Shown: positions 2,873-64,000, numbered from the stretch's first letter. The stretch: DNA of 64,000 bases from Promethearchaeota archaeon (GCA_048938105.1 JBHLMN010000004.1:32001-96000); one strand, 5' to 3'. Notes: a model not told the origin generated them from the letters alone. A program made the numbers and translations.

Positions 2873-5800
2873 GAAGTCATATAAGACATTATAATCGAAA
2901 TTCCTATCGAATTCAGTTAATTTTAAGTTGCTTACTTTTATTGATCCTAATTTATTCTATTCCATCAGGTATTTCACAAAGATCCAAATTAGACTTAATT
3001 ACTACCTCAAAATTTGAAGAAATAACAAATGAGAGTTTTAATTATGAAAAAATGACTCAAAAAGCGTATAACTATCTGGAGAATCATTGGAATCCACAAA
3101 AGACAGCACAATCTTGGATATCTGATGATCTTCCAACAATGGAGGATGCTTTTAGATCAACATTTTTCGATAATATGCTTGAAAGTGCTATAAGTAATGA
3201 ACTACAAACTACTACCTCTTCTCAACCTAGAAGTCATATTTCGACTAAAATAACGCCCCTTAGTGAGGGGGGCGAAGTAGTCGAACATACACAAATCTCT
3301 GGGAAACCCAAAATAAGACTTGATGTGTTTAATCAGTCTATTCTAGATGATATTATAATTCCTGTGCGTTCAATCTCTGATATCAAGGTTTTCCAACCTG
3401 AATATACAACCGTTGAAAAAGAAGTGAAAATTGGATTTGAATTTGATCTCCCAAAAATTGATGAAGAAATAATCTTTAAGTTCTCAATATTCAGATTTCG
3501 AGCTTGGGCAAAGTTTGAATTCCGAGTACACTTTGTTTTTCCAGTGAAATTAAGGATTACATACCCTGTGGAAGTTATTGAAGGGTATCCTTATGATTTC
3601 ACCTGTCAAATGATTCCATGGAACCTCCCCAGCTATAATGAATTTGAATTCTTGCTTGATTTTGATTTTGGAGCAGCTGCTGAAATAAAAGTATTCGGGG
3701 CATGGAGAAAACTAGTTGGGAAGAGTTTAGCATTTAATTTTCATAAAGCTAAGACTTTTACAACTCCTCTCGGTAAAACACCCATGAAAATAGGATTACC
3801 TGATATCGACATTATCGAAAAATATATTGATTATTATTTGGAAGAAAATGAGGAAAATGTTTCTAAGAGAACAGGCAATGTTCTGAAGATTCTGAAAAAT
3901 GTTGTCGGAGCAGGTATTGGTTTAGGAACTATAAATTTTTATGGAGATATGGTTTCAGCGAAGCTAGGAGTATATACTGATATTAAAAAAATTGGGAAAA
4001 GGGGTGTTGCATGGACAAAAGCAGATGAAAAAAGAAGTTTTCGTTTCTCAATTGCACAAGCAACTGGGGAGGCTATTGCTAAATTCGTAAAATTTGAGAT
4101 AACAGATCTTCTCTATCATTTGAGAGTGACATGGAGACCAAATCTATTTTTTACTTTCAAGAATATTAAATACTTTGGAATTAAGGTTCCTTTGAAAGAT
4201 TGGCTAGGTGAATATCGTCTTCATCTTCCCGAAATCCCTATTGGAAAAATTTGGCTTATTCCCTCTTTATTTTCATATTCAACATCAGGATCATATACAA
4301 CAGCTTGGGATGCTTATGGTTTTTCAGCAACTTTCGAGGAACTTCCTCCATATGAAGGTCAGGGAATCCTATCTAATATTAGAGTTCATGATTATATGTA
4401 TAAAGTTAAGGTGAGAAATCTTGGAACTAGAACAGATTTAATTCGCCTTGAAGTTTTGAATCTACCTCCTGGATATAAAGTATTTACAAATAGTGACTCT
4501 AAATATTTTACTATAAGTCCAACTGCTAGAGAAATTGATGTGGTCATTTCCGCGCCTGATCGAATTAGTGTTCCACCTGGGCCATGGAAGCTTAGCTTCA
4601 AGGTCACTAGTATATCCCTAGAGATTCTTAAATACTCTACTCCCTCCATCTCATCTCAAGAATTCCAGATTGAGATTCCACATATTATAGATATGGATTT
4701 TGAATTGGATCATGATATGGCTAACATTTTCAATGTCACACGACAAAAATACAATTCAATTGCATTCTATGGTGGAAATGGAGGCAATTTAAACGATACA
4801 ATAATTGTTAATGCGTCTTTAATTACTGATAGAGGCAATCGAACCTTGTTGAGGAGTTTTAAATTAGATCCGTGGGCTTCAGGGCCAGGAGAACATTTTC
4901 AAGGCGAATTTGGTTTTTATTTTGACCTGAATAATCTTTATCCATCTCCAGGGTACTACTTATTTGAGATTCAAGCAAGAAGTGCGAGAGATCCTAATGT
5001 TCAAATAGAATATAAATTCTTTATGGATTTCCCTCAAGTACATAGTGTTATAGCGGAACTTACACCAAAGAATGTTACGATATTTGCAGATTGGGGTGCT
5101 ACATTTACATTACAAGTTAATAATACAGGTAATTATTGGGATAATTTCTCTCTCATATGCAATGCAGGTGATTTAGATGGATATCTTGATTTTCCTGATG
5201 AAATCTTGAATCTTGGATTTTTAGAAGTGGAAGAAGTGTCTATCGTCTTGGCTATCCCTGATCCTAGTATTATCCCTGCTATGGTTGCTAATATGCGAAT
5301 AATCACCCAGTCTCAGGGAAAACAATCAGTGTACGAGGCTGAATATGCTAATACCAAGATATTAGAAGCTGATGATGTACCCCCTGGTATTAACTATATT
5401 GAACCTATGTTTAGTTCAGATAATTTAACGTTACCACAATCATTATTAACTCTTGGACCCAGCTGGAAAGCTATAGATGAGTATCCTGGTCCTGGAGCTT
5501 ATACCATTTATATCGATGGGATTGTACCTGCAGAATCGTGGGCTACTGGTTCATGGAGTATGGATATTCCCGTTCAAGTTCCCATGACTGATATATACTC
5601 TCTTCCAATCGGTATTTATAACGTGACGATTGAATTCTCCGATGAGGCTGGAAATACTGCAACAGATCAAGTTTGGGTTAATATTACTTCTCCTGACAAT
5701 ACTTTACCAATCCTAACCCCAATAACCACTGGAATTTCTTTTCCAATTAATTTTGTAAATGAGAGATTAATCAGTTGGTATTGTGAGGAAGCTTATCCTT

Positions 5801-7536
5801 TAAATTTAATAGCGCTTTTAGATGATATCGAAATCCCAGATTCAGATCTCTTTACTACTCAATATGATGTACATTCAAAAAGCTGGATAACAAGTTGTAT
5901 TTTAAAGCCAGGGACTTTACCTGTTGGTACATATAATTTTACTGTTATCCTTCAAGATATGGGTGACAATATCGTTATTTCAAGTATTTTTGTTGATATT
6001 ACTACCTCAGATAATGAGGTTCCAATAATGATTGGAACTACTCCGTTATCCGTTGCAATACATGGTCAAGATGAAACTGTTTCAATTAATTTCACTGATG
6101 ATAATCCTGATAATTATGAATTCTGGATAAATTCAATACTAGAGGATTCAGGACATTGGGAAGCTGGTGTTGCCCTAAGCTATGAAGCAGAGTCGCTAAG
6201 CTCAAATGTTGGAGAGAATAATTTTACTTTTGTAGTTTATGACCTTGCTGGTCACCAAACTACACATCAATGGACATTTACTTGGAGAGATCTCGACCCC
6301 CCCACAGTTCTTATTACTCCAACAGACTCAACTTTTTATGAGCATAATATTACTCAAGCAATGGCCCCATATTGGATGTTAGAAGACTATGATATACGAC
6401 CTGGCAGTTATAAAATTTATAAGAATAATATAGTGGTAGAAGAAGGAATATGGAATCGAGGTAATGGAACTATCTTCATTCCAACTGTAAATATTACCCC
6501 TGGTATATATGAATTCCACGCTGAATTTCGTGATGCTACAGGTAATCTATTCCCAAGTCCTAGTGTGACATTAAGCATCCTAGATATTTTAGATCCTTTT
6601 ATTTTACCTATAGAATCAATTGATTATGAACCTCCTTTTGCTCCTAGTTGGTTTGAATTCATTGTTGTGGAATCATATTTGAGTAATTATCAGCTTTATA
6701 TAAATGATATTATGGTTCAAGAGGATACTATATCATCAGATTTTCCCATTCTCTTTATAAATCTTGAAGAAACCTTACCAGGTGATTACAACTATACTTT
6801 AATTGTAACAGATGAATCAGGAAATATTGGAAAAGAATCTGTATCTGTTCAAATGCATGATTATACTCCACCTTTGATAAGAATCCCAGCTAATATAATT
6901 TATTCAGAAGGTACAACAGGACATGCAATTTTGTGGGAGATTATAGAAGCTAATCCACTTAACTATTCAGTATATTGTAATGGAGCCCTCATTACTTCTG
7001 GAACTGATCTCTCATTAAATTTCACTCTCTCCGTGGATGGGTTAACATTAGGAAGTTATGAGTATGTAATCCTAGTATATGATGAATCAGGTATGTCTCA
7101 TACCAGCTCTTGTTATGTGACGGTTGTAGATGTTACAAAACCTGCCCTAATACACGTTGGTGATTGTAGGTTCGTTTCAGGAGACGAAAACGCGGAAATT
7201 ATCTGGCGAGTGGATGACCCTCACCCAGAGTCCTATACCATCTTCCTCGATGGGGAAACACTTCTTGAAGAAACATGGAATGGAAACGATATCACACTAA
7301 GCTTAATAGGATGGTCTCCAAACAACTACACACTTCGCTTACAAGTCTTTGATACATCAGGTAACCATGCAAATGACGAGATTAAAGTTGAAATAATTGA
7401 ATTTGAAAATGAAGAAGAATATGTGGAAATAGCTACAGCCTTTTCTTTGCCTTTTGTATTGATATGCTTGATGGTCCTTAGGGTGATTAATAAGAGCAGA
7501 AATAGAGAGGATAGAATAAAAAAATTATATGATTGA
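2869..7536 (+). CDS. 1555-aa cell-surface protein with signal/TM segment, uncharacterised beta-rich N-terminal region, about 7 Ig-like repeats and C-terminal anchor
   Basis: ATGA overlap with the upstream stop. Hydrophobic N-terminal segment, repeats ending G.YN.TI...D..GN, many N-x-S/T sequons, C-terminal helix followed by basic residues. Confidence 0.75.
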   Translation: MRSHIRHYNRNSYRIQLILSCLLLLILIYSIPSGISQRSKLDLITTSKFEEITNESFNYEKMTQKAYNYLENHWNPQKTAQSWISDDLPTMEDAFRSTFFDNMLESAISNELQTTTSSQPRSHISTKITPLSEGGEVVEHTQISGKPKIRLDVFNQSILDDIIIPVRSISDIKVFQPEYTTVEKEVKIGFEFDLPKIDEEIIFKFSIFRFRAWAKFEFRVHFVFPVKLRITYPVEVIEGYPYDFTCQMIPWNLPSYNEFEFLLDFDFGAAAEIKVFGAWRKLVGKSLAFNFHKAKTFTTPLGKTPMKIGLPDIDIIEKYIDYYLEENEENVSKRTGNVLKILKNVVGAGIGLGTINFYGDMVSAKLGVYTDIKKIGKRGVAWTKADEKRSFRFSIAQATGEAIAKFVKFEITDLLYHLRVTWRPNLFFTFKNIKYFGIKVPLKDWLGEYRLHLPEIPIGKIWLIPSLFSYSTSGSYTTAWDAYGFSATFEELPPYEGQGILSNIRVHDYMYKVKVRNLGTRTDLIRLEVLNLPPGYKVFTNSDSKYFTISPTAREIDVVISAPDRISVPPGPWKLSFKVTSISLEILKYSTPSISSQEFQIEIPHIIDMDFELDHDMANIFNVTRQKYNSIAFYGGNGGNLNDTIIVNASLITDRGNRTLLRSFKLDPWASGPGEHFQGEFGFYFDLNNLYPSPGYYLFEIQARSARDPNVQIEYKFFMDFPQVHSVIAELTPKNVTIFADWGATFTLQVNNTGNYWDNFSLICNAGDLDGYLDFPDEILNLGFLEVEEVSIVLAIPDPSIIPAMVANMRIITQSQGKQSVYEAEYANTKILEADDVPPGINYIEPMFSSDNLTLPQSLLTLGPSWKAIDEYPGPGAYTIYIDGIVPAESWATGSWSMDIPVQVPMTDIYSLPIGIYNVTIEFSDEAGNTATDQVWVNITSPDNTLPILTPITTGISFPINFVNERLISWYCEEAYPLNLIALLDDIEIPDSDLFTTQYDVHSKSWITSCILKPGTLPVGTYNFTVILQDMGDNIVISSIFVDITTSDNEVPIMIGTTPLSVAIHGQDETVSINFTDDNPDNYEFWINSILEDSGHWEAGVALSYEAESLSSNVGENNFTFVVYDLAGHQTTHQWTFTWRDLDPPTVLITPTDSTFYEHNITQAMAPYWMLEDYDIRPGSYKIYKNNIVVEEGIWNRGNGTIFIPTVNITPGIYEFHAEFRDATGNLFPSPSVTLSILDILDPFILPIESIDYEPPFAPSWFEFIVVESYLSNYQLYINDIMVQEDTISSDFPILFINLEETLPGDYNYTLIVTDESGNIGKESVSVQMHDYTPPLIRIPANIIYSEGTTGHAILWEIIEANPLNYSVYCNGALITSGTDLSLNFTLSVDGLTLGSYEYVILVYDESGMSHTSSCYVTVVDVTKPALIHVGDCRFVSGDENAEIIWRVDDPHPESYTIFLDGETLLEETWNGNDITLSLIGWSPNNYTLRLQVFDTSGNHANDEIKVEIIEFENEEEYVEIATAFSLPFVLICLMVLRVINKSRNREDRIKKLYD

Positions 7537-7576
7537 AACTTAACTTAAAAAATCAGCTGGGAGAGATAAATCTCAG

Positions 7577-8196
7577 TTAGCCTTTCTTTCTGATGAAACA
7601 AACAACAATTAATGTCGTAATGACTAGGAAAATAACAATGGAAGGAGATACTTGTTGTTCAGTAGTTGTTGTTTCACTGCTTGATGTTTGCTGTGGATTT
7701 GAAGAGGCTGGATTGAGACCGATATTCACTTCATAACCGTCAGATAAGCCATCACCATCAGTATCCCAAACTATTGGTTTAGTGTTGTAATTATGGACTT
7801 CTTGATTGTCTGACAAGCTATCAGTATCAGTATCAGGCACTGCTTGGAGAGTTCCTAAATTATATTCCTCACCATTAGTTAATCCATCTCTATCAAAATC
7901 CTCGCTGGTATCATTGAAGATGTTCATTCTAGCGCATAAAGATAATATTCACTACAAAATATGATGTCCAGAATATCTTAACCAGTGATTTCAACAAGAG
8001 CTGGAGAATACATAATTCGGCCATCTGCAGTATAATTCCATAATCTAAACGTTATCGGAATAATGGGAGGTATTGGAATAATGGGAAAGGCTTCAATTTG
8101 AGATGTGAATAGAAATAAATTTAAGAAAAGTATCAAGGATAATAGACTTCTTTTAGAATTCAAACCAAGAACCCTAACTTGTTTCATAGATTTCAC
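7577..8196 (-). pseudogene. Decayed secreted FG-GAP/beta-propeller plus Ca-binding (DxDxDG) repeat surface protein
   Basis: 72-aa ORF (signal peptide + SPALVEITG) continues past the TAA at 7978-7980 as DILDIIFCSEYYLYALE, completing an FG-GAP-like repeat. A different frame then gives DFDRDGLTNGEE/DTDGDGLSDGYE repeats and a TM-RKK tail (7577-7927). Confidence 0.7.
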
Positions 8197-8335
8197 CCAT
8201 TAAAATTGTCCTAAGTGTATTTAATAAAAACTTCAATAATAATTTAAATTCAGTTAATCTTTCACTATTTTGGATGTTATTAGATTTATCAGATAAAATA
8301 TTCAAGAAAAGACCTTTTTCAGGGATTGAAAGAGA

Positions 8336-9028
8336 ATGATCATTGAAGATAGGAATTTACGTAATAAATACTACATATTTGACTCTAGAAGGCGCGCGGG
8401 GTTTTTACTTGGGCCATATATTGCTTTAGAAGACTTTGATATCCTTTACATAATTCCTAATGGAGGAGTTCCTATTGGATTAGGCTTACTCGAATTTCCT
8501 CTGGTTTCACCCCTGAAAGTGTTTGACCTTTTAATTGTACGAAAAATACAGATTCCAGGAAGCACCGAGGCGGGAATGGGTGCAATTACTCCTGATGGCC
8601 AAATTTTTCTAAATGAACAACTTGTCTCTCGATTGTCAGTAACAAACTATCAGCTAGAACAACAGATTGAAAGGGCAAAACAACAGGTGGAAAAACGGAG
8701 ACGGAGTTTTCAGCTACCCCCCTCGCCAAAAGTGTATGGTAAGAAAGTCTTAATCACTGACGATGGGATCGCTTCTGGTTTCTCAATGTTAGCAGGAGCA
8801 AAATGGTTGAAGAAACTTGGTGCTGAAGCTGTATTAATTGCTGTACCAACAGCACCAATGAGCTCGATAAATCATTTAGAACCACATGCAGACAAGATAA
8901 TTTGTTTAAACATCCGAGATCGCTATCCTTTCGCTGTGGCTGATGCATACAAAGATTGGTATGATTTAACTATGTCAGAGGTTAAAAAATATATTGATGA
9001 GATAAGAATGCTTCAAAAAGTAAGTTAA
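8336..9028 (+). CDS. Type I phosphoribosyltransferase family protein
   Basis: PRPP-binding motif VLITDDGIASG, plus IPNGGVP and VRKI..P...EAGMGAI. Confidence 0.85.
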   Translation: MIIEDRNLRNKYYIFDSRRRAGFLLGPYIALEDFDILYIIPNGGVPIGLGLLEFPLVSPLKVFDLLIVRKIQIPGSTEAGMGAITPDGQIFLNEQLVSRLSVTNYQLEQQIERAKQQVEKRRRSFQLPPSPKVYGKKVLITDDGIASGFSMLAGAKWLKKLGAEAVLIAVPTAPMSSINHLEPHADKIICLNIRDRYPFAVADAYKDWYDLTMSEVKKYIDEIRMLQKVS

Positions 9029-52226: not shown

Positions 52227-52246
52227 AATACAAAAGCTTTTGTATT
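52227..52246. promoter_or_regulatory. Perfect 20-bp palindrome, candidate operator between divergent genes
   Basis: AATACAAAAGCTTTTGTATT is its own reverse complement and ends 13 bp before ATG 52260. Confidence 0.55.
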
Positions 52247-52259
52247 GAATGTGACGATC

Positions 52260-53345
52260 ATGACCTTTGCCCGAATGCTTCTTGAAGAATGGTTTGATAA
52301 ATACCAGTTTGAAGTCGATTATGACATTGGAGAGAGTGGAGTAAAATTCTTCAAATTTCGTGATTTGAATTTAGATCTTGATGATGTCGAATTAAGATAC
52401 ACCCACCATTTAGGTAACCCTGAACTGAGAGAAGTCATTGCTCTGGAATATGAAAATATAAGTTGGGAGAGTATTGCAGTTACTACTGGTGCCGCAGAAT
52501 CTATTTTTTCACTTATTGCATCTTTAACAAGTAGAAAAGATCATATTATAGTAGAATGTCCCAATTATCCCTCCTTTTGGTATATTCCAGAATCCTTGGA
52601 GCGTCAAATGGATCTTTTCTCCTTAAGATTCGATGAACAATTTAAACCGAATGTTGAGACTCTAGAGGAAATGATAAGACCAAATACGAAACTAATTTGT
52701 TTAACACACCCAAATAATCCAACTGGATCTGTAATAACAGAAGAGGAACTAAAGAATATATTAGATATAATTGAAGAGAAGAAGATTTGGCTATTAATGG
52801 ATGAAACTTATAGAGATTTATCAATTAGTAAATCACCCCCTCCAACAGCTGCAAGCTTAAATTCAAGGGCTATTAGTGTTTCTACAATGTCTAAAGTGTT
52901 TGGTGTTCCTGGGATAAGAATTGGTTGGTCTGCTTGTCTTGATGAAAATGTTATCAAAGGAATTTTAAAAGTTCGGGAACAAAAAACTATTTGCAATTCA
53001 GCATTGAATGAGGTAATAGCACTGCAGCTGTTAAACCAGAAAGAAGAGCATTTACTGGATATTAAAAGACGAGTTAATACCAATATTCAAATCCTAATAG
53101 AATGGATGAAAAATCAAGAGGATTTAAAATTTATAGTTCCTGAAGGTGGAGTAACGTGTTTTCCCCGCTATAGAGAATCAACTAAGGAACTTTGTCGTCT
53201 CTTAGTAGAAAAATATAGGACATTTACAGTTCCAGGTTACTGCTTTAAGATGGATTCCTTTTTCCGTTTGGGATTTGGTGGAGAAACGGAAGAATTGAAG
53301 AAAGGGCTTGAAAAACTAAACCTAGCTATAAATGAAATTGAATGA
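52260..53345 (+). CDS. Class I/II PLP aminotransferase-fold enzyme (start probably ATG 52260)
   Basis: DIGESGV, HPNNPTG, DETY, SKVFGVPGIRIGW. Confidence 0.9.
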   Translation: MTFARMLLEEWFDKYQFEVDYDIGESGVKFFKFRDLNLDLDDVELRYTHHLGNPELREVIALEYENISWESIAVTTGAAESIFSLIASLTSRKDHIIVECPNYPSFWYIPESLERQMDLFSLRFDEQFKPNVETLEEMIRPNTKLICLTHPNNPTGSVITEEELKNILDIIEEKKIWLLMDETYRDLSISKSPPPTAASLNSRAISVSTMSKVFGVPGIRIGWSACLDENVIKGILKVREQKTICNSALNEVIALQLLNQKEEHLLDIKRRVNTNIQILIEWMKNQEDLKFIVPEGGVTCFPRYRESTKELCRLLVEKYRTFTVPGYCFKMDSFFRLGFGGETEELKKGLEKLNLAINEIE

Positions 53346-53400
53346 ACAACACAAACATCATAAATCCTAAAAATATACTTATCAAAGGGTTTCGATAACG

Positions 53401-54477
53401 TTGAAAAGACCTTTGAAGATTCTCCTTACATCAGTAGGATGTCCTGGTGCACCAGCACTTATTAGACACTTAAAAGACAATGGAGAGAGAGAAATCCAGA
53501 TAATCGGCATTGATATGAACCAATATGCTACAGGATTCTATATGGTTGATAAACCGTATATTGTACCACCAGCCAAAGAAAGTAATTATATTCCATCATT
53601 GTTTAAAATAGCTGAAAAAGAGAAACCTGATGTAATTTTTCCCCAATCCTCCTATGAAGTAGGACCAATTTCTCGGAATAAAGAAAAATTTGAAGATTTA
53701 GGCGCTAAAGTAATGGTCTCCAAACCTAAACCTATCGAAATATGTAATAATAAGTATCTTTTGCTAGAATTCTTGAGATCTCATGGATTGAAGACAGCAG
53801 AATATTATTATCCGAAAGATCTCAAAGAGTTTCAAGAATGTGCAAGACTCTTAGGATTTCCAGAGAAAAAAGTTTGCTTCAAACCACATATTTCTAAAGG
53901 GAGTCGAGGCATGCGGATTATAGACCCCAAAATAAATAAGGTCGATTTACTTCTGAACAAACGTCCTTTTAATAGATATATTGATATGAATGATTTTTTT
54001 GAGATTTTTACTGATAAAGAATTCCCCAAACTTCTGCTAATGGAGTACTTAGACGGACTTGAATGTACTGTGGACACATTAGTTTCTGATGGTGAAACGC
54101 TTCTTTCAACAGTAAAAACCCGTGAAAAAGCCACATCTGGTCTAGCAATGATTTTTAAAACAGTTGATCGTCCAGACCTTGAATCATTTACAGAATTAGC
54201 TATGAAAGCACTTCGTCTTGACTACTGTATCAATGTTCAATTCAAGGGTAAACATCTTATAGAAATCAATCCACGAGTATCAACTTTTACATACCAAGAA
54301 GACCTTGTTTTACCCTATCTTTCTCTTAAATGGCTTCTTGGGGAAATTTCAAAAAAAGAACTAGCTGATCAAAAATCTAAAATAAGATATGGGAGAATAA
54401 CGATCCGCTATTATGAACAATACGGTATTAATGAATTCAATGTTCCACAAATAGATAGTAGAAGGATTATCAATTAA
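53401..54477 (+). CDS. Stand-alone ATP-grasp ligase (carbamoyl-phosphate-synthase-like)
   Basis: N-terminal Rossmann-like ILLTSVG.PG, NK, FKP..SKGSRG, LMEYL.G.E.TVD, INVQF, IEINPR. Confidence 0.85.
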   Translation: MKRPLKILLTSVGCPGAPALIRHLKDNGEREIQIIGIDMNQYATGFYMVDKPYIVPPAKESNYIPSLFKIAEKEKPDVIFPQSSYEVGPISRNKEKFEDLGAKVMVSKPKPIEICNNKYLLLEFLRSHGLKTAEYYYPKDLKEFQECARLLGFPEKKVCFKPHISKGSRGMRIIDPKINKVDLLLNKRPFNRYIDMNDFFEIFTDKEFPKLLLMEYLDGLECTVDTLVSDGETLLSTVKTREKATSGLAMIFKTVDRPDLESFTELAMKALRLDYCINVQFKGKHLIEINPRVSTFTYQEDLVLPYLSLKWLLGEISKKELADQKSKIRYGRITIRYYEQYGINEFNVPQIDSRRIIN

Positions 54478-54505
54478 ATACTCTGTGTCATAGAGCTGTT
54501 CAGAA

Positions 54506-56014
54506 ATGACAAAGAAAAAGGAATTATCAGAATATTATGGCAAAGGAGGGCGATTGAAGACCTCTGCTGCACGAGAATTAATTGAAACAGCCTATAATTT
54601 TGAGTGTAATGAACAAAAGATATTATTTAACGATATAGGGTATGCTGATATCGCTCATGTCTTGATGTTGATTGAGGAAGGAGTGATTCCTCCTGAAAAA
54701 GGAGGTACTCTTCTTAAAGCTTTAATGGATTTACAAGAAGTAGATGTTGACAACATACCTCTCAAAACTGAATTGGGAGATATTTATAACGTTCGAACTG
54801 GTATATTAGAAGAAAAAATTGGAAAATTAACTGGTTGGATGCACGCAGGCCGCCCTCGGCGTGAAGCAATTAATATTGGTTTTTTGCTTACTGTTAGACG
54901 TCTTTTACTCAGATTGTTAAAGGTTCATCTCCTTTTAATCAATGAATTCCTAGCCAAAGCTCAAAGCCACTTGAATACAATAATGCCAGATTTCACATAT
55001 TTACATCATGCACAACCCACATCTTTGAGTCACTACTTGTTAACATTTGTATATCCTGCTTTACGAGATTTAGAGAGATTAAAAGTTAATTATGAACGAA
55101 TAAACTCAAGTCCCTGTGGTTCTGGTAGTGTGAATGGATCAAGGCTTCCCCTTAATCGAACCCGTCTTATGATATTACTAGGATTCGATAGAATGACAAA
55201 ACATACAAGGGATGCAATGTGGCAACCTGATATACCTATTGAAACAGCATCAAATTTACTGGCATTGTTAATCAATATTAACAGATTTTCTGAAGAGTTA
55301 CAAATATGGAGCACAACAGAATTTAAGATGATTGATCTTCCAGATCGTTTCTGCAGAGCAAGTGTAATTATGCCTCAAAAGAAAAATCCTTACTCGCTGA
55401 CATACATTCGTGGATTAACGGGAGATATGATAGGTACTTTTACGAGTATTGCTGGAGTAGCAAAAACTTCATCAGGCAATCCTGATTCTAGAATGTTCGT
55501 TTACGGTAAGTTGCCAAGAGCTATTGAAAATATTTCAAAAGCAGTTGATCTTTTTGCTTCTCTTATAAGAGACATGAAACCAAAAACTGAAATAATGTTA
55601 CAAAGAGCAAATGAGGGTTTTCCCCAAGCTACTGATCTTGCTGATGTCATAATGCAAGAAAAAAAAGTAGATTATCGGTCTGCACACCAAATCGTCGGCA
55701 TTCTTGCTAGAAAATCTATTGAATCTGAGTCAATAGAATTTTCTCTGACTCCTGAATCAGTTGATGAAGCTGCTAGTCAAGTTCTCGGGGAAAAAATTGG
55801 TTTAACACAAAAACAATTAGAATCAGTACTTGATCCAGTAAAAATCGTTGAAACAAGGCAAGGTCCTGGAGGTGCTTCGAAAATTCGTGTCCAAGAAATG
55901 ATTAGGGAGTGCCATGAATTCATTCAAGAGATTTCAGGATGGAGAGATGAATGTGAAGAACGTTCTTTAAATGCTCTCAATAATCTCATTTTGATAGCAA
56001 AAGAAAAAATTTGA
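54506..56014 (+). CDS. Argininosuccinate-lyase-like aspartase/fumarase superfamily lyase (XcbC-like candidate, probably not true ArgH)
   Basis: HAGRPRRE, MPDFTYLHHAQP, signature ASVIMPQKKNP, ATDLAD, YRSAHQIVG; directly upstream of comA. Confidence 0.8.
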   Translation: MTKKKELSEYYGKGGRLKTSAARELIETAYNFECNEQKILFNDIGYADIAHVLMLIEEGVIPPEKGGTLLKALMDLQEVDVDNIPLKTELGDIYNVRTGILEEKIGKLTGWMHAGRPRREAINIGFLLTVRRLLLRLLKVHLLLINEFLAKAQSHLNTIMPDFTYLHHAQPTSLSHYLLTFVYPALRDLERLKVNYERINSSPCGSGSVNGSRLPLNRTRLMILLGFDRMTKHTRDAMWQPDIPIETASNLLALLININRFSEELQIWSTTEFKMIDLPDRFCRASVIMPQKKNPYSLTYIRGLTGDMIGTFTSIAGVAKTSSGNPDSRMFVYGKLPRAIENISKAVDLFASLIRDMKPKTEIMLQRANEGFPQATDLADVIMQEKKVDYRSAHQIVGILARKSIESESIEFSLTPESVDEAASQVLGEKIGLTQKQLESVLDPVKIVETRQGPGGASKIRVQEMIRECHEFIQEISGWRDECEERSLNALNNLILIAKEKI

Positions 56015-56025
56015 GTTGTGGAATT

Positions 56026-56793
56026 ATGAAAAAATTACTAAATCTTCCTGAAAGAGCTAAAAAGCCAAGAGAAATTGGATTAACTCATGTTTTAGACAAA
56101 GCAATTGGTCTCTCAGCCCAAGAAGATATGCTTAACACATGTGCTTATTATATTGATATAGTGAAAATTGGGTGGGGATTAGGAGTTCTCGTACAGCACC
56201 TAAAAGATAAAATCGATTTGTATCATAAGCATAAAATCCCAGTCACCTTTGGTGGCACATTATTTGAGGTTGCCTACGCCAATAACAGGCTTGATGAATA
56301 CAAGAATTGGATGAAAGAATTAGGGGTAGGGTATATGGAGATCTCTGATGGTACAATTACCTTATCTATATCTGAGAAGTTGGATTTTATAAAGGAATTT
56401 TCCAAAGATTTCACTGTACTTTCTGAATTCGGCAGCAAAGATGCTGCAACCATTGTCGCTCCTAAAGAGTGGGTGTTAGGAATGATTATGGAACTTGATG
56501 CTGGAGCATGGAAAGTAATCGCTGAAGGCAGAGAATCAGGAACATCTGGTCTTTATCGGCGAAGTTCTGAAATCCGTACAGGTCTCGTCGATGAGCTCAT
56601 TGATGCAATTAATCATGAAAAAATCATTTGGGAGGCTCCTCAAAAGTCCCAACAAGTGTGGTTCATCAAAAAATTTGGTCCGAATGTAAATTTGGGCAAT
56701 ATTGCCCCCTCAGAAATAATTCCATTAGAAACTTTGCGTCTTGGGTTACGTGGAGACACATTGTTAACATTTCATGGTTCAAAGGAAAAATAG
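56026..56793 (+). CDS. comA: Phosphosulfolactate synthase
   Basis: KPR..GLT.VLDK, KIGWG, GGTLFE, EISDG, SEFGSK, EGRESG, WEAP...QQ, VNLGNI, LETLRLGLRGDT. Confidence 0.95.
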   Translation: MKKLLNLPERAKKPREIGLTHVLDKAIGLSAQEDMLNTCAYYIDIVKIGWGLGVLVQHLKDKIDLYHKHKIPVTFGGTLFEVAYANNRLDEYKNWMKELGVGYMEISDGTITLSISEKLDFIKEFSKDFTVLSEFGSKDAATIVAPKEWVLGMIMELDAGAWKVIAEGRESGTSGLYRRSSEIRTGLVDELIDAINHEKIIWEAPQKSQQVWFIKKFGPNVNLGNIAPSEIIPLETLRLGLRGDTLLTFHGSKEK

Positions 56794-56800
56794 CCCATTT

Positions 56801-57619
56801 TCAGCTTTTATCTTTTCTTCTATGAATGTCTTTTTTGAGATCGGGGTTGGAAATGGTCGTTAAACTCGAATCCAAATCAATAGTTGTTGCCATTTCCCGT
56901 ATAAATTGTTCCTTGTTTGCATGTATGTGAATTCCACATTCTTTTTTCTCCAATCCTTTCCAACGTCCCTCTCTTTCTCCTTCCCCATCATTTACGGGTG
57001 CTGTGCAGGGAACGCATCCAATACTTGGGAAATTTTTGTCATGAAGAGGATTATACGGAAGTTCATACTTTTTAATATAGAACCAGACTTTTTCTTGAGA
57101 CCAATCCCACATTGGATTGATTTTAATCATTCCCCGCCCATCTATTTCAATAACATCTAGATTTGCACGCGTTTTAAACTGATCTCTTCTTATTGCACTT
57201 AACCAAGCGTTTTTCGTTTCCAGTACTTTTAGGAGGGGTATAACCTTTCTATAATGGCAACAGATGTCAGGGTTTGTTCTGAAAGCGTTTTTTCCAATTA
57301 TAGTGTCTAATTCTTTTTCGCTAAAATTCGGATATAAAAGCTGTATATTTAGTTTCCATTCATTTCTTATTCTATTCATGAGATCAATTGTCTCTGGAAA
57401 ATGGAGACGAGTATCAATGAAATATATTGGAACTTGTGGTACTGTATCTTTAATAAAGTTCATTAAAACAATACCACTATAGCCAAAGGCAGTAGTCATT
57501 GCTAATTCTTCACTAAATTCCTCATAAGATAATAAAATGATTTCTGATACATCTCTGCCAGTGAAATCCTTTTTCAATATTTTTACTTTTCTTATCTTTT
57601 CTCTCATTGAAAATTTCAT
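56801..57619 (-). CDS. cysH: APS/PAPS reductase family, [4Fe-4S] (APS reductase) type
   Basis: TAFG, FIDT..HFPET, CCHYRKV, SIGCVPCT, REGRW, KECGIH. Confidence 0.88.
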   Translation of the reverse strand: MKFSMREKIRKVKILKKDFTGRDVSEIILLSYEEFSEELAMTTAFGYSGIVLMNFIKDTVPQVPIYFIDTRLHFPETIDLMNRIRNEWKLNIQLLYPNFSEKELDTIIGKNAFRTNPDICCHYRKVIPLLKVLETKNAWLSAIRRDQFKTRANLDVIEIDGRGMIKINPMWDWSQEKVWFYIKKYELPYNPLHDKNFPSIGCVPCTAPVNDGEGEREGRWKGLEKKECGIHIHANKEQFIREMATTIDLDSSLTTISNPDLKKDIHRRKDKS

Positions 57620-57930: not shown

Positions 57931-58920
57931 TCATTGAATATTCATAAAATCTTTGATAATTATACTTAGTTTTTCCATATCAAGAGTCATGAAATTGATA
58001 AATCCATCAATTATAAACATTAAAATTCCTAAAAGTAATATTAAAGGTGTTTTACTAAATAATCCTCCTAAAAAGTAAAAACCAAAGTAGCTTAAATGAA
58101 AGAATATGAAAATTATTGGAGGCAATAAATCAGTATTCTTTTCCACAATTGGTTTTGATTGACTAAAAGGCACAAGAAGTATTATACTAGCCAAAATCAT
58201 TGTATAGATGAGAATCGATAATCCTGTCAAACCTGAAGGAATACTGTAATTATAAATACTTAAAATATTAAATAATATGTATACAGGTAGTGGAAGGACA
58301 TGAAATGATAGAAATAAAGGCAGGTATGAAAAGAAGGGAATAATTAGGAAATACAGGATCGATAAGATTGAAGGAACATTAAATTTTTTACTAATTTCTT
58401 TTTCTTCTAATCGTAACATTACCGAGAAAATAAGTACAACAAAGAACCATCCAACAAAATTCCCATAATTTACTCCAAAGAAACTATTTAAAGTGGGAAA
58501 GGGTTCCATAGGGATATCAATCCAACTCCAAAAACCACCATCAAGACGAATAGCAATTGTATCCATAGATAAATCAATAGTTAATGCCAGAAACCCATCT
58601 AATACTGAACGTGACCATTCAGGAATATTAACGACCTTGTTGGAAACATTCATACACGCATAAATGATCAAACCCCAACATAATCCAATACATATTGGAA
58701 TGTTGTCAGGAGGAGATCCAAGTTGAATAAGGAATTCAGGGGAGTACGTATAGGTATGCATTACTTGTACATTCATAAATTCAAGGGTCACTCCAAAAAG
58801 GCTTCCACTCACAATTTGAGCTATTGATTTATGATCTTTCCTCATAAACCATAAATAGAACAGAACACCAAGGAACAAGAGAAATGCTGATAATTCTGCA
58901 AATAAAGTGAAAAACACCAT
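57931..58920 (-). CDS. CruF/carotenoid-biosynthesis (hydratase-like) membrane protein family
   Basis: Multi-TM; E...YTY, P..IGLCW, D...D, FWSW, FGV...NFVGWF. Confidence 0.7.
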   Translation of the reverse strand: MVFFTLFAELSAFLLFLGVLFYLWFMRKDHKSIAQIVSGSLFGVTLEFMNVQVMHTYTYSPEFLIQLGSPPDNIPICIGLCWGLIIYACMNVSNKVVNIPEWSRSVLDGFLALTIDLSMDTIAIRLDGGFWSWIDIPMEPFPTLNSFFGVNYGNFVGWFFVVLIFSVMLRLEEKEISKKFNVPSILSILYFLIIPFFSYLPLFLSFHVLPLPVYILFNILSIYNYSIPSGLTGLSILIYTMILASIILLVPFSQSKPIVEKNTDLLPPIIFIFFHLSYFGFYFLGGLFSKTPLILLLGILMFIIDGFINFMTLDMEKLSIIIKDFMNIQ

Positions 58921-59189
58921 CTTTGAACCTTCAGATTTATTTTTATGTTGAGGTGAATTCTATTTTATTCTTCTTTTGTCAATTTGTCTCTTCTAGGAGA
59001 ATCATGAGTTCTACAGAAATCATGTTTGTGTTCATAATTGTGATTTACAATATATGCTTAAATCTTAAGACAAGCATAAAAGTATCGTTTCTAAAAGAGT
59101 AGTTTCATTAGACAATATGGACGAGAATACATAGTAATACATAAAAGCAAAATGATTTGTCAATTCACTTTAAGAACGGAGATTATATT

Positions 59190-60851
59190 ATGAATATTAT
59201 TCAGGGATTCTCTGCCACCTCATCAGGTATTCAGCTGAATGTCACAAATATTCTCAAACACGGGGCAAGGAGCTTTGGTAGACAAGAAATTGTTAGTAGG
59301 AGACAAGATGGAACTATATTTCGTTATACTTACAAAGACGCTTACACTCGTGTAAAGCGTTTGGCTAGTTCTTTAAGTTTTTTGGATATAACAATTGGAG
59401 ATAAGATTGGGGTTCTTGCTTGGAATACCTATCGCCACTTTGAGCTATATTATGGGCTTTCTGGTACTGGAGCAGTAATGCTTCTTCTGAATCTACGTCT
59501 TGCTCCTCAAGAATTGAGCTATATCGTGAACCATGCTAAGGCAAGATTCATCTTTGTAGATGAAAACCTTCTAGATGTAGCAGAATCGATTGCTCCCTTG
59601 TGTAAGACAGTCAAAGCGTATGTTATTATATCAGATAAACCGTTGAGTGATGTTCCTACATCTCTTACTCCAATATATAGTTATGAAGAGATGTTAAATG
59701 AAACAAATCCAGAGTTTGAATGGCCCAACATTGCTGAGACCTCAGCTCATTCAGCTTGTTACACCAGTGGGACAACTGGTAAACCTAAAGGAGTCTATTA
59801 TTCTCATCGTGATGTTTATCTTCAAGCAATGATGTATGCCGTTAATGCTTCGATTTCAATAAATGATTGCCTACTCCAAATTGTTCCAATGTTTCATGTT
59901 CTAGGTTGGGGTTCTCCTTACGCAGCGACACTAGTAGGAGCTAAACTCGTTTTTCCTGGCAAATACCATTTAACTGACCTAGGGGATCTCATAAAGATTC
60001 TAGTTGAGGAAAAAGTGACGATTTCAAATGGGGCTCCTGCTGTCTTAATGCCAATGTTAGAACACATCCGAAAAATGGATCCAAAACCCAATCTGACAAA
60101 AACACGGTTTATTTCGGGGGCCTCGGAACCTCCTATCTCTATGATAAGGGATTTTCAGAAGTTGACTGGGGCAGAAATTGTCCATTCCTATGGTTCAACT
60201 GAAGCGCATGCAATCGTAACATTGAACCGAGTCATTCCTGCATTAAAGAAAGAGCTCTCCGAGGAAGAAAGTTGGGATCTAAAAAGAAAACAGGGATATA
60301 TTGTTGTTGGACTTGACATTAAAATTATAGATGAAAATGGCAAGGAACTTCCTCATGATGGCAAATCAGCTGGAGAAATACTTATCCGAGGCCCTTGGGT
60401 TTCAGGGAGTTATTATAACAACCCTGGTTCTGAAATTCAGTTTAATAATGATGGTTATTTTAAGAGTGGAGATGTCGGAACGATTGATTCTGAGGGATTT
60501 TTGAAGATTACAGATCGCCTCAAAGATCTTATTAAGAGCGGTGGAGAATGGATCTCTTCAGTGGATATGGAGAATGCAATTGTCTCTCATCCTGCCGTTA
60601 TTGAAGCAGCAGTCGTTGGATGTCCTCATCCTGAGTGGCAAGAACGGCCTTTAGCTTTAGTAGTCTTAAGAGACGAATTCAGAACAAAAGTAACTAAGGA
60701 TGAGATTAAAAAACATCTTGCTGAAAAATTTGCTAAGTGGCAGCTCCCTGATGAGATTCTTTTTGTGACTAGAATACTAAAAACAAGTGTAGGGAAGATA
60801 GACAAGAAAACTATTCGAATGCAATATAATAACATCTATACAAGTACTTAA
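59190..60851 (+). CDS. Medium-chain acyl-CoA ligase (AlkK/DmdB-like; start probably ATG 59190)
   Basis: [57 protein letters not shown]. Confidence 0.9.
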
Positions 60852-60865
60852 ATAGGCCAATAAAA

Positions 60866-61270
60866 TTAGATTTCAATTCGTAGTACCTTCTTGACTTCTT
60901 CCCAGTACCATTCCCGTTTATAAATGGGATAAATTTGTTGTAGTTCAGATATTTCTTCTTTTATTGCCTTTGTTATTTGATAATTTTTATGAATTGAACA
61001 TTCATCATGGATAAAGGGCTTTCCAGTTATAAAAATCGGATAATATTTACAGTAAAGGGGTTTAGTTTGGTGAATTACGCATTGATTATTGTGAAAATAA
61101 GGACATCCTTGAGTTGTGTAGTATATCCCACCATCCTTCACTTGTTTGAATCTTTCTGAATAGTTTTTGAAAAGATAGACTTCATCAGGATTGAGAATAA
61201 TATAAACATCGATGCAGCAATCATTACCATCTCTTCCTATACAATTACGACAAAGATTTTCTTTACTCAT
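60866..61270 (-). CDS. YkgJ-family cysteine-cluster protein (start probably ATG 61270)
   Basis: CRNC.....DCC, CPY....CVIH..KP..CKYYP. Confidence 0.8.
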   Translation of the reverse strand: MSKENLCRNCIGRDGNDCCIDVYIILNPDEVYLFKNYSERFKQVKDGGIYYTTQGCPYFHNNQCVIHQTKPLYCKYYPIFITGKPFIHDECSIHKNYQITKAIKEEISELQQIYPIYKREWYWEEVKKVLRIEI

Positions 61271-61298
61271 AAGAATTCCCAATTTTTTGTGTGGGCCA

Positions 61299-64000
61299 CT
61301 AGAATTTACTTCGTATTCCATCAATTAACAATTTAAACAAATGACTAATTTTGAGGTTCACATCATCACGTTCCTTTTCTTCAGGATGTTTCTCTTCCTG
61401 ATTGGCCATGTCTACCCATTCAAGATAAGACTTATCTAAAATCTCCTCAATACCGTATTCTTTTATGATTTTTTCCGTCTTTGGATATAATTGAGAATGA
61501 TTGCCATATAATTTCCCTGTCTGATTATTTTGAAAGAGAATCAAGGCGGGAAATGAAAAATGATTTGCTAAAGATTGGATGAAATTTGATGGTTTATCAC
61601 CCATGTAAGGTACAATTATGAGTTCGAATCTAATAGTTTTTCCCGAAAATGTAGGTGCAGTTGACTTAAATGTGCTTGAATAGGTTGGGATAATTTGTTG
61701 AGCGTGACCTGTCCCATGAGTCCAATGGTGTAGCATTTTCCCATAATATGTTCCGAAAGGGTTTATCCTAATCTGTTGGCCATTCTGATTTAAGTCTCCA
61801 AATCCCTTGGCTCGGATTTTTATCGGAGCGAAAGCGAAATTTGCAGCCTTTAGTGAGTTAAATGCAATTAATAACCCCTGATCCCGATTTGAAACAGCCA
61901 TCCATCCATCAGAGATATTTGATACAAAGCAATCTATATCTGCATTCTTTGGGTCGACTTCAACCATATCTAAGTCAAAATAAGTAGTATGGCCGAAAAA
62001 GTTATGTTTCCAGATTCTTAAATGAGTGTCATTTTTACCAATAATATTTGGTCTAATTTCACAAGGAATAATCTCTTGCCAGCGATCATCAAATTCTGTT
62101 TTCACTCCAAAAATATTACTATCACTAGTGGTAGTACCAAAAATATTAGGAATCGTCATATAAACTTTAAGAAGGACTTTTGGAATGTTCGCATATACAG
62201 TTAATTCTTTTTCTGCCTTCACTTCTAATCCATTAATTATTTTAAATAAGCTAACAATTTTTACAGAAGCAAAGAAATTATTACTCCCATCATGTAAAAT
62301 TTTAATCTCATCAGATGCAGATTTGTACTTTAATAATCGTTTCGGTTTACCAAAAACTATTGCTGACTCTAAAAATTTTTTAGAACTGAATTCCTTTCCC
62401 TCAAAGATGAAAGTATTAATTTTTCCATTATCATCGAATTCTAATTTGACATATTTATTTTTTAGAATACGCTTAGACGCAAATAAATCCCTATCTATTC
62501 GTGGGATTGTTTCTTTTTCTCGATTAAAAAGAAGTTTTAATTTGATATATCCTGATTTATTAAAAGAAGAGGTTGGTATAATCGCTTCAAAGAGATCTGT
62601 CTCACGATTGTTTTCTTTATTGACATTAAATGGTATTTCTTGGGGATTTATTTTCTTTATTCCCTTAAATTCCTTTGGTAATTCCGTTCTAATTAATATC
62701 GGAGAATTAACTAATTTTTCTTCCTTTCTTGTTATCCCTCGGGTTTTAATAGGGAGGATATACATATTAAAAGCATCATCAGTAGAATTCCACGTGGAAT
62801 TCAGGGCTTCACTTAATGCTAAGTTAAAAGACTTTTTTGCTAATTTGAAAGAGTCAATCGCGTATTTTAAAGCGGTTTTTTGGCGATGAGGATGTTGAAA
62901 TGGCATTGACATTCCAAAATGTGTCGTGGATGAGAAAAGTATCTTATTTTTCATGTGAGAATTAACTGAATCATTATCATTCCGAAGATAGTTATTTATT
63001 TGAGAAAGATTCGATTGAGTTATTTTTTGGGAGATTAATGTGTCAGTAACACATTTTAACCAGCGAGAATGTTGTCCAATAGTCCAAAATTTAGTGTTAT
63101 TATATTTTTGTGCCCAATTGTAATAACCACACCAACATCCATCTGCTAAATCTTGTCTAATTGTACAAGATCCATGAACTTTGAGTTTTGGTATAATTTC
63201 TAACAGATTCACCAATTTGACGTATTCTAACTTATCCACTGCTTTAATTATTTCTCGAATTCCTCCAGTATTAGGCATCCACTTCATAAAACGTGGGACG
63301 GCAGTTCCCTTCCACGCAGGACTATCCATATCATGGTTCAACACAACCAGAGCATGACCTTCAATGTTCCCTGTTTTCTGTTTTCTACGTATGAATTTAA
63401 ACCATTTCTCAATAGATAGATGATCAATAATATCCCCGAAACCATACATAGGAATCATAATACAACTAGCATCAGAGATAGTTGATAAGAAATTAACTAA
63501 ACCATAACATTGGTTCCAATCTAATCTAGGATTAATTAGGGGGCGTGCTGTGTCAAAAGGAATAACTGCATAATAGTTGAGGATACCTTTGATCCCAACT
63601 TGCTTAAAAAGTTCTATCATACCGTGGGTAAACATTGTTTCTTGTACGCGAATATAAGGGGCAATTCTACCTGGAAATAATTGTTTTAAACCTATTCCCA
63701 TTGAATTCTCAATGTTCCAAGTGCATTGTAGGAGAAATTCCTCTGTATCTAAAACTGAAAGAGCGTTATTCCCCCAACTTCCGATGATAACTTCATCTCT
63801 ACCTTGTTTCACACGTTCTATTACTTGATCTAGAATATCTGGTTGGTATTTTTGTTGGAGTTGGATCGACCAATATAAATCACTATAATCCCAAGAAATC
63901 CTAATCTTTCCATCACAAAATCCTTCGTCCTCACATTTAACAATTGTGTCCATAATCTCTCGCATTATTTTTAGATCTAGTCCAAAACCATCTGTACCTA
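61299..64000 (-). CDS. Large hypothetical protein, possibly GH38/GH57-like glycoside hydrolase; N-terminus lies beyond the window
   Basis: Frame stays open to the window edge (GTDGFGLDLKIMR...). N-terminal barrel-like motifs SWD, WGNN, QETM, NHDMD; beta-rich C-terminal half (LKNKYVKLEFD..G.I). Confidence 0.45.
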   Translation of the reverse strand, partial: GTDGFGLDLKIMREIMDTIVKCEDEGFCDGKIRISWDYSDLYWSIQLQQKYQPDILDQVIERVKQGRDEVIIGSWGNNALSVLDTEEFLLQCTWNIENSMGIGLKQLFPGRIAPYIRVQETMFTHGMIELFKQVGIKGILNYYAVIPFDTARPLINPRLDWNQCYGLVNFLSTISDASCIMIPMYGFGDIIDHLSIEKWFKFIRRKQKTGNIEGHALVVLNHDMDSPAWKGTAVPRFMKWMPNTGGIREIIKAVDKLEYVKLVNLLEIIPKLKVHGSCTIRQDLADGCWCGYYNWAQKYNNTKFWTIGQHSRWLKCVTDTLISQKITQSNLSQINNYLRNDNDSVNSHMKNKILFSSTTHFGMSMPFQHPHRQKTALKYAIDSFKLAKKSFNLALSEALNSTWNSTDDAFNMYILPIKTRGITRKEEKLVNSPILIRTELPKEFKGIKKINPQEIPFNVNKENNRETDLFEAIIPTSSFNKSGYIKLKLLFNREKETIPRIDRDLFASKRILKNKYVKLEFDDNGKINTFIFEGKEFSSKKFLESAIVFGKPKRLLKYKSASDEIKILHDGSNNFFASVKIVSLFKIINGLEVKAEKELTVYANIPKVLLKVYMTIPNIFGTTTSDSNIFGVKTEFDDRWQEIIPCEIRPNIIGKNDTHLRIWKHNFFGHTTYFDLDMVEVDPKNADIDCFVSNISDGWMAVSNRDQGLLIAFNSLKAANFAFAPIKIRAKGFGDLNQNGQQIRINPFGTYYGKMLHHWTHGTGHAQQIIPTYSSTFKSTAPTFSGKTIRFELIIVPYMGDKPSNFIQSLANHFSFPALILFQNNQTGKLYGNHSQLYPKTEKIIKEYGIEEILDKSYLEWVDMANQEEKHPEEKERDDVNLKISHLFKLLIDGIRSKF

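Follow-up and report, generated by a model that had tools for sequence, protein, structure and literature searches.

The window analysed here is a 64,000-nucleotide stretch of DNA from a Promethearchaeota archaeon (GCA_048938105.1 JBHLMN010000004.1:32001-96000), and it carries a compact group of genes around an intact gene for ComA, the phosphosulfolactate synthase that joins phosphoenolpyruvate (PEP) and sulfite. On the plus strand, in coordinates of the whole window, lie genes for a class I/II-fold pyridoxal 5'-phosphate (PLP) enzyme (52245..53345; Aminotran_1_2, 160 bits; the ATG at 52260 is the start given in the initial annotation), an ATP-grasp carboxylate-amine ligase (53401..54477; PylC-like_N plus ATPgrasp_Ter), an XcbC-like lyase of the aspartase/fumarase superfamily (54506..56014; Lyase_1 plus ASL_C2) and ComA itself (56011..56793; PF02679, 298 bits, positions 1-243 of 243). 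They are followed on the minus strand by a gene for CysH of the Fe-S assimilatory adenosine 5'-phosphosulfate (APS) reductase type (56801..57619; PAPS_reduct, 141.6 bits; PRK02090, 229.9 bits with a cut-off of 154). The PLP and ATP-grasp genes are separated by 55 nt and the ATP-grasp and lyase genes by 28 nt; the lyase and ComA genes overlap by 4 nt if ComA starts at a TTG and are about 11 nt apart if a later ATG is used, and the convergent ComA and CysH genes have their stops 7 nt apart. Open reading frame (ORF) calls and family models from Pfam and NCBIfam confirm the layout first proposed, in which four co-directional genes face an APS reductase gene, and the five-gene order is identical in two more Asgard records (L010 and L014), whose proteins are 70-87% identical to those of the window. 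ATP-grasp, ComA and CysH are each encoded in single copy in the genome to which the window belongs (G000, 99% complete). The names carried by nearly identical proteins assign the archaeon to Heimdallarchaeota/Hodarchaeales. We consider the core of the group to be a four-gene accessory cassette composed of the ATP-grasp ligase, the XcbC-like lyase, ComA and the convergent CysH.

The initial annotation had placed the lyase with XcbC, the lyase of the bacterial coenzyme M (CoM) pathway, rather than with the argininosuccinate lyase ArgH, and model scores, phylogeny and signature residues all bear this out. On the argH model TIGR00838 the lyase scores 293.6 bits, just over the cut-off of 279.5, whereas true ArgH proteins, taken from 18 other Asgard genomes, reach 448-544 bits. 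On the XcbC model NF052535 it scores 487.1 bits, with the true XcbC of a complete cluster (L090) at 724 bits and scored loci that combine lyase and ComA without XcbD at 416-510 bits. In a tree of 76 XcbC-like and 12 Asgard ArgH rows, the two groups are split with an SH-aLRT support of 100, and the window lyase falls in a clade of 11 (support 98), nine members of which come from loci where the lyase gene precedes that of ComA and XcbD is lacking. Its nearest relatives are found in a Woesearchaeota metagenome-assembled genome (MAG), Verrucomicrobiota, Desulfovibrio and gammaproteobacterial symbionts.

Enzymes of this lyase family have active sites formed between subunits. The XcbC signature is complete in the window lyase (R118-R119-E120, T164-Y165, R284, S286, K292, Y296 and R329). 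In the alignment, all 76 XcbC-like rows have R119, E120, Y165, R284 and N210 without exception, and R329 and Y296 predominate among them; the ArgH rows differ from these at all seven positions (one has N at 210), and the window lyase carries all seven XcbC-specific residues. Going from ArgH to the XcbC-like proteins, SRND is exchanged for R118-R119-E120, T-H for T164-Y165, T-G-S-S for R284-x-S286-V287, NPD for NPY296 and a Glu for Thr299, and R329 is added. The catalytic residues of duck delta-2 crystallin we take to be His162, Glu296, Ser283 and Lys289, and a constant offset of +3 to this numbering across five motifs backs the mapping. The equivalents of the ArgH base Ser283/Lys289 are retained as S286 and K292, and the His162-Glu296 acid relay is gone, with Tyr165 and Thr299 in its place. 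A replacement of the catalytic Ser by Val was considered and rejected: the base Ser is kept, and it is the second Ser of the loop that has changed (V287). The lost acid relay together with the added Arg would fit a phosphate leaving group and extra Arg ligands.

Relatives of the lyase occur in at least 592 species genomes, and the results on loci given here refer to the best 80. In most of these, which span many phyla, the lyase gene adjoins that of ComA, and two architectures can be told apart. The first is the true xcb cluster encoding XcbA, ComA, XcbC, XcbD and XcbE, which is found in Chloroflexota, Methylococcales, Marinimicrobia and Actinomycetota; in L090 every protein of the cluster exceeds its NCBIfam cut-off. 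Complete xcbABCDE clusters are present in L026, L032, L055, L059 and L076 (at about positions 1-9000) and in L050, L062, L082 and L090, and they are accompanied upstream by nine shared families in Marinimicrobia and Chloroflexota and by CoA-transferase subunits in Methylococcales, which suggests that CoM-dependent metabolism reaches far beyond the alkene oxidisers known to have it. In the second architecture, represented by 21 bacterial and three Asgard loci, a single lyase gene is followed by that of ComA, and XcbA, XcbD and XcbE are missing. Between the window ComA and the ComA encoded after the lyase in the bacterial loci, identity is 46-57%.

An ATP-grasp gene adjoins the pair in 16 of the 21 bacterial loci of this second type, mostly directly upstream of the lyase, and the proteins belong to two subfamilies without significant similarity to the window ATP-grasp. 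Because three unrelated ATP-grasp subfamilies have been recruited beside the same pair, the amide ligase appears to be functionally tied to ComA and the lyase, as the initial annotation had supposed when it placed the ligase in the pathway, and the neighbourhood survey finds the linkage conserved. Of the other five loci, two lie on contigs too short for a judgement, L047 starts at the lyase and continues into a nonribosomal peptide synthetase (NRPS), L041 encodes beside the pair an AMP-binding enzyme together with an LbH acyltransferase and a DegT sugar aminotransferase, and one has an MBOAT gene. In L047 (L047:3045-10770, an Anaerolineales MAG), the NRPS (domains A-T-C-A-T, then C-A) starts 20 nt after lyase, ComA and CysH, from which a nonribosomal peptide that begins with a C3 sulfonate unit can be predicted. 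The annotated bacterial lyase-ComA loci sit within polysaccharide clusters. The repeated, independent recruitment of carboxylate-activating enzymes is our main argument that the C3 sulfonate may serve as an acyl donor. Two apparent links were discarded: ATP-grasp::lyase fusions (ORFs of 916 aa in L057 and 886 aa in L038) are artefacts of ORF calling in GC-rich DNA, the two parts lying in different frames or with a stop between them and hence adjacent rather than fused, and the AMP-binding gene of the window, although it clusters with that of L041, shares only 21% identity with it and lends no support to a common partner.

Judged by its gene content, the cassette is not a CoM pathway. The initial annotation had seen neither comB, comC nor comDE in the window and had noted the lack of XcbD, and searches of the whole genome extend these absences: there is no PF04029 match for ComB, no TIGR03845 match for ComDE and no match for XcbA, and McrA was not found. 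The best XcbD match is a PurB-like gene with 31% identity on contig C48, and the only XcbE-like gene (36% identity) is unlinked, about 100 kb away. Of the two archaeal genes whose presence elsewhere could have accounted for ComA, comB is missing, and for comC there are two Ldh_2 (ComC-family) genes on other contigs. One element of the earlier comparison has to be dropped: the PAPS-reductase-family protein attributed to the xcb cluster is not confirmed, as XcbA is a DUF7714 protein, described as a [2Fe-2S] protein of unknown function (PMC9457059). Like xcbABCDE of Xanthobacter autotrophicus Py2 (PMC9457059), the window has ComA (XcbB) next to an XcbC-family lyase, and the XcbC-specific residues are common to both lyases, so the first two reactions are expected to be alike, from PEP and sulfite to phosphosulfolactate and on to sulfoacrylate. 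The two differ in that the window lacks XcbA, XcbD and a linked XcbE, has the order lyase-ComA instead of ComA-lyase and a lyase below the XcbC cut-off, adds ATP-grasp and CysH, and belongs to a genome without a CoM-using enzyme. The archaeal ComA-ComB-ComC-ComDE route and the sulfolactate genes yitBCD of Bacillus subtilis likewise begin with sulfite fixation by ComA; unlike these, the window genome has neither ComB nor ComDE, and phosphate would probably be lost by elimination and not by hydrolysis.

A probable source of sulfite for ComA lies within the cassette. ComA scores 252 bits on TIGR03849 (cut-off 280), and its Pfam match is full length. The CysH translation carries the CC...CxxC ligands (DICCH and CVPC) and an ECGIH motif; Sat (ATP sulfurylase) and CysC (APS kinase) are encoded on contig C52. 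No NIR_SIR sulfite reductase was found in the genome, in a search whose control was positive in 11 of 14 genomes. With Sat present, CysH in single copy and no sulfite reductase, sulfite has no evident assimilatory fate except ComA. CysH also adjoins the lyase-ComA pair in three bacterial loci (L028, L041 and L047). Hence the sulfite made by CysH probably feeds ComA, in line with the source first suggested. The joint absence of argG, a true argH and NIR_SIR from the genome also suggests arginine auxotrophy and the lack of an assimilatory route from sulfate to sulfide.

The relatives of the window ATP-grasp point to a possible acceptor. Homologues with 45-55% identity are common; a PDB sequence search returned only an unannotated structural-genomics entry (2pn1), and a look-up in the ESM Atlas only the protein's own family. 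Of the 20 loci whose flanks are long enough to judge, 14 have PIG-L de-N-acetylase and GT4 glycosyltransferase genes next to the family member, usually in the order GT4, PIG-L, ATP-grasp, glycosyltransferase, and members of the family keep company with flippases, Wzy, Bac_transf and several glycosyltransferases. The clade of the window ATP-grasp is nested in a clade with support of 97 that counts 11 PIG-L-linked members among its 18 rows. The PIG-L proteins of the 14 loci all have the same best match in the genome of the window, at C52:230781-231404, with 35-57% identity (45-57% for 12 of the 14). This gene lies in a glycan cluster that encodes GT4, UDP-GlcNAc 2-epimerase, a TagF-like transferase, a sulfotransferase, Sat and CysC. 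Among 40 relatives, all six with the ATP-grasp carry the C52-type PIG-L, adjacent or near in four of them; only in G000 and G009, which are also the two that possess the lyase-ComA cassette, are the two genes unlinked. We infer from this pattern that the ligase re-acylates a de-acetylated hexosamine and that its gene has moved, in this lineage, beside the genes that supply the acid. As for the cluster on C52 in its own right (L204, G000:C52:214001-234000), it encodes an APS kinase, a type I phosphodiesterase, an ATP sulfurylase, a TagF-like glycerophosphotransferase, a 610-aa NTP-transferase::Aminotran_1_2 fusion, a sulfotransferase, UDP-GlcNAc 2-epimerase, GT4 and PIG-L, which suggests that sulfated surface polymers are among the archaeon's products too.

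What is observed directly is which genes the genome has and lacks, the families to which they belong, their signature residues and their linkage; every reaction of the following pathway is predicted from this. Sulfate would be activated by Sat, encoded elsewhere in the genome; APS would be reduced to sulfite by CysH; ComA would add sulfite to PEP to give (2R)-phospho-3-sulfolactate; and the lyase would eliminate phosphate to yield 3-sulfoacrylate, as shown for XcbC of Xanthobacter. The ATP-grasp enzyme would then activate the carboxylate of sulfoacrylate as an acyl phosphate and couple it to an amine, for which the best candidate is a hexosamine, in a surface glycan or glycoside, that the PIG-L deacetylase of the C52 cluster has de-N-acetylated. 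The front end is well supported by homology, signature residues and context, and we consider the formation of sulfoacrylate likely. The later steps we infer from gene linkage: ligation of sulfoacrylate by the ATP-grasp enzyme is slightly favoured, and an amino sugar as acceptor is put forward tentatively. The explanation as a whole we regard as evenly poised. Of the product classes named in the initial annotation, which ranged from a solute or cofactor to a lipid headgroup or glycan decoration, the last is best supported, through the linkage of the ATP-grasp family to PIG-L and GT4. More generally, we propose that ComA, an XcbC-like lyase and a carboxylate-amine ligase may form a widespread and so far undescribed module, present in many bacterial phyla and one Asgard genus, that acylates amino sugars or peptides with a C3 sulfonate, as a sulfoacryloyl or 3-sulfopropanoyl group. 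We give this reading a probability of roughly 35%.

Nearest models of the PLP enzyme are PRK07324, GntC and VioD, with every score below cut-off. Its orthologues (69-76% identity) occur in seven of 20 congeners and the lyase in one of 20. Downstream of CysH lie genes for a Caroten_synth-like membrane protein (57931..58920, minus strand; PF04240, 44 bits) and an AMP-forming acyl-CoA synthetase (59157..60851, plus strand; PRK06187, 532 bits with a cut-off of 476; DmdB-like, 565 bits, below the cut-off of 822), and the space between the conserved PLP gene and the acyl-CoA synthetase gene, itself 73-84% conserved, is a slot of variable content. It is empty in G015 (L102), where the PLP gene directly precedes an AMP-binding gene 84% identical to the acyl-CoA synthetase of the window; in G008 it holds the carotenoid-synthase-like gene alone, without the cassette, and this gene is missing from L014, which has the cassette; in L101 it holds an ATP-grasp that belongs to a different branch of the family (46% identity); and in G011 (L126:5232-8954) two LbH transferases, an Amidohydro_2 enzyme and a CysH-like gene (56% identity), without ComA or lyase. 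In L128 the PLP gene precedes yet another cassette. No class-I PLP enzyme was seen in the annotated bacterial lyase-ComA loci. The PLP enzyme is therefore a conserved left flank that congeners keep without the cassette; the four-gene operon of the initial annotation overstated its membership, and a part in the pathway is doubtful, possible but unsupported. The acyl-CoA synthetase is the conserved right flank, with a possible pathway role, and the Caroten_synth-like protein is probably slot content and not part of the pathway. The CysH-like gene beside the same PLP enzyme in G011 raises the possibility that the PLP enzyme itself might use sulfite. In G018 (L129:1387-5002), like G011 of the same genus as the window genome, the PLP orthologue is followed by a 496-aa protein without a Pfam match, an ornithine cyclodeaminase/mu-crystallin enzyme and a second Aminotran_1_2 gene. 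Beyond the acyl-CoA synthetase, the minus strand of the window (60866-63965) encodes a 152-aa protein with a CxxCxxCC domain and an 888-aa protein without a Pfam match, and both genes also adjoin the acyl-CoA synthetase in L010, L014 and L126.

One may argue that the lyase is simply the organism's argininosuccinate lyase and its neighbourhood coincidental. This is how databases label it; it passes the argH cut-off, and it is the only strong ArgH-like match in the genome, where no second ArgH was found. Yet there is no TIGR00032 match for argG in a genome that is 99% complete (the control search was positive in 14 of 14 genomes), the equivalents of His162 and Glu296 are Tyr and Thr, the tree separates the lyase from ArgH with a support of 100, and its linkage to ComA recurs across phyla. 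Moreover, the lyase query has no ArgH-like match in 19 of 20 congeners, and an enzyme of arginine synthesis missing from nearly all relatives is a further point against this view, which we regard as extremely improbable. A shortened pathway to CoM or a CoM-like thiol, in which the lyase performs the steps of both XcbC and XcbD and the PLP enzyme replaces XcbE as the C-S lyase, also seems very unlikely. In its favour, ComA and an XcbC-like lyase constitute the front end of bacterial CoM synthesis (PMC9457059), C-S lyases are known among class-I fold PLP enzymes (117 bits here on the PatB model), and there is the unlinked XcbE-like gene; it is opposed by the absence of XcbA, XcbD and McrA, by an ATP-grasp enzyme that has no role in CoM synthesis, by a PLP gene that is not specific to the cassette, and by true xcb clusters, which differ in gene order and contain XcbA, XcbD and XcbE.

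The remaining alternatives accept the front end and differ in the product. The ATP-grasp enzyme could join sulfoacrylate to an amino acid or a small glucosamine (GlcN) glycoside, giving a soluble solute, cofactor-like compound or antimetabolite by the logic of fumaroyl-amide natural products, mycothiol and bacillithiol. The cassette has no glycan genes at its flanks, low-molecular-weight thiol pathways likewise show the order GT4, PIG-L, ligase, lyase, ComA and CysH directly precede an NRPS in L047, and in L101 the same PLP and AMP-binding genes enclose an ATP-grasp, all of which would suit such a product; the flippases, Wzy, Bac_transf and glycosyltransferases around the relatives of the ATP-grasp, and the polymer-type cluster (TagF-like, epimerase, sulfotransferase) in which the genome's PIG-L lies, speak against it, and we hold it to be unlikely. 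Somewhat less probable still is that the sulfonate enters as the amine, sulfoacrylate being converted by the lyase or the PLP enzyme to cysteate or an N-substituted cysteate, which the ATP-grasp enzyme would then attach to a carboxylate such as that of a uronic acid. EDDS lyase, the closest solved structure, does add amines to fumarate, the class-I PLP gene is co-directional and only 55 nt upstream, and amidation of the Campylobacter capsule (PMC11800379) provides an example of an ATP-grasp that acts together with an Aminotran_1_2 enzyme. However, the PLP gene is a conserved flank that occurs without the cassette and has no class-I counterpart in the annotated bacterial loci, the lyase lacks the His-Glu relay that protonates amine leaving groups, and the neighbouring enzymes in L041 and L047 activate acids.

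Several points also weigh against the proposed pathway. The lyase does not reach the curated XcbC cut-off of 575 bits, and its closest solved structure is an amine-adding C-N lyase, ethylenediamine-N,N'-disuccinic acid (EDDS) lyase (194 bits, E 3e-56), a likeness by which it might add an amine to sulfoacrylate. An FAD_binding_2 reductase is added in six bacterial loci and is absent from the window locus, and lineages may accordingly differ in the acid they ligate. The proposal gives no role to the adjacent PLP enzyme. No deacetylase or glycosyltransferase gene lies beside the cassette, the PIG-L gene being on another contig, and G016 has an 80%-identical PIG-L orthologue without any ATP-grasp, which means that the pairing is not obligatory. 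Finally, the enzyme activities and the product of the pathway are predictions.

Comparison with known systems helps to place the proposed module. Mycothiol (MshA, MshB, MshC) and bacillithiol (BshA, BshB, BshC) are made by a GT4 enzyme, then a PIG-L/LmbE deacetylase, then a ligase. The relatives of the window ATP-grasp follow the same order of GT4, PIG-L and ligase, which implies re-acylation of de-acetylated GlcN; here, in contrast, the ligase is an ATP-grasp, the contexts contain flippases and polymerases, and the proposed acyl donor is a sulfonate instead of cysteine. EDDS lyase of Chelativorans sp. BNC1 (PDB 6G3D-6G3I, 6RX8, 6RXA) resembles the window lyase in its fold and in the catalytic Ser of the SS loop, S280 in that enzyme (PMC6973171), whereas the window lyase has the Arg-rich substitutions of XcbC and is linked to ComA. 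The ATP-grasp amidoligase of the Campylobacter jejuni HS:2 capsule (PMC11800379), which amidates glucuronate, offers another amide decoration on a surface polysaccharide whose neighbouring genes supply the small substrate, although there the sugar gives the carboxylate and the small molecule the amine, and the reverse polarity is favoured here. In misNOPQ, which makes the 2-sulfoacetyl starter of misaugamycin B (PMC9136965), a ComA homologue likewise supplies a sulfonated acyl group that ends in an amide, but misNOPQ pairs it with an acyl carrier protein, an acyl-CoA ligase and a glyoxalase, lacks an XcbC-like lyase and yields a C2 instead of a C3 product. In the literature searched, we found no link of ComA and ATP-grasp to polysaccharides, no sulfoacryloyl or sulfopropanoyl group, no glycan step pairing PIG-L with ATP-grasp, and no description of the cassette or module as a route to sulfonated cell products.

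The distribution of the cassette suggests how it arose. The lyase is present in two of 399 Asgard species genomes, both of one genus, and a reading of the bacterial-type front end as an Asgard trait thus does not hold. The Asgard ATP-grasp subfamily differs from the bacterial ATP-grasps of lyase-ComA loci, and most of the nearest relatives of the lyase-ComA pair are bacterial, a pattern that agrees with a horizontal origin of the pair and its later joining to a ligase of the glycan-cluster type. The cassette looks like a mosaic, its lyase-ComA pair acquired laterally and combined with a glycan-type ligase and CysH.

To our knowledge, sulfoacrylate has so far been known only as an intermediate of bacterial CoM synthesis. 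The cassette and at least 21 similar bacterial loci suggest a second fate for it, in amide-linked sulfonates on glycans or peptides. For Asgard biology the effect is modest, since the cassette, an accessory trait, is rare and confined to a single genus. If the proposal is true, it would add a new branch to organosulfonate biosynthesis and a new class of permanently anionic decoration of glycans and natural products, made from sulfite and not by PAPS (3'-phosphoadenosine 5'-phosphosulfate) sulfotransferases, which on surfaces would be a negatively charged modification that sulfatases cannot remove; in its unreduced, sulfoacryloyl form, the group would be an electrophilic Michael acceptor. It would also give a function to a lyase family that is mis-annotated as argininosuccinate lyase in many genomes.

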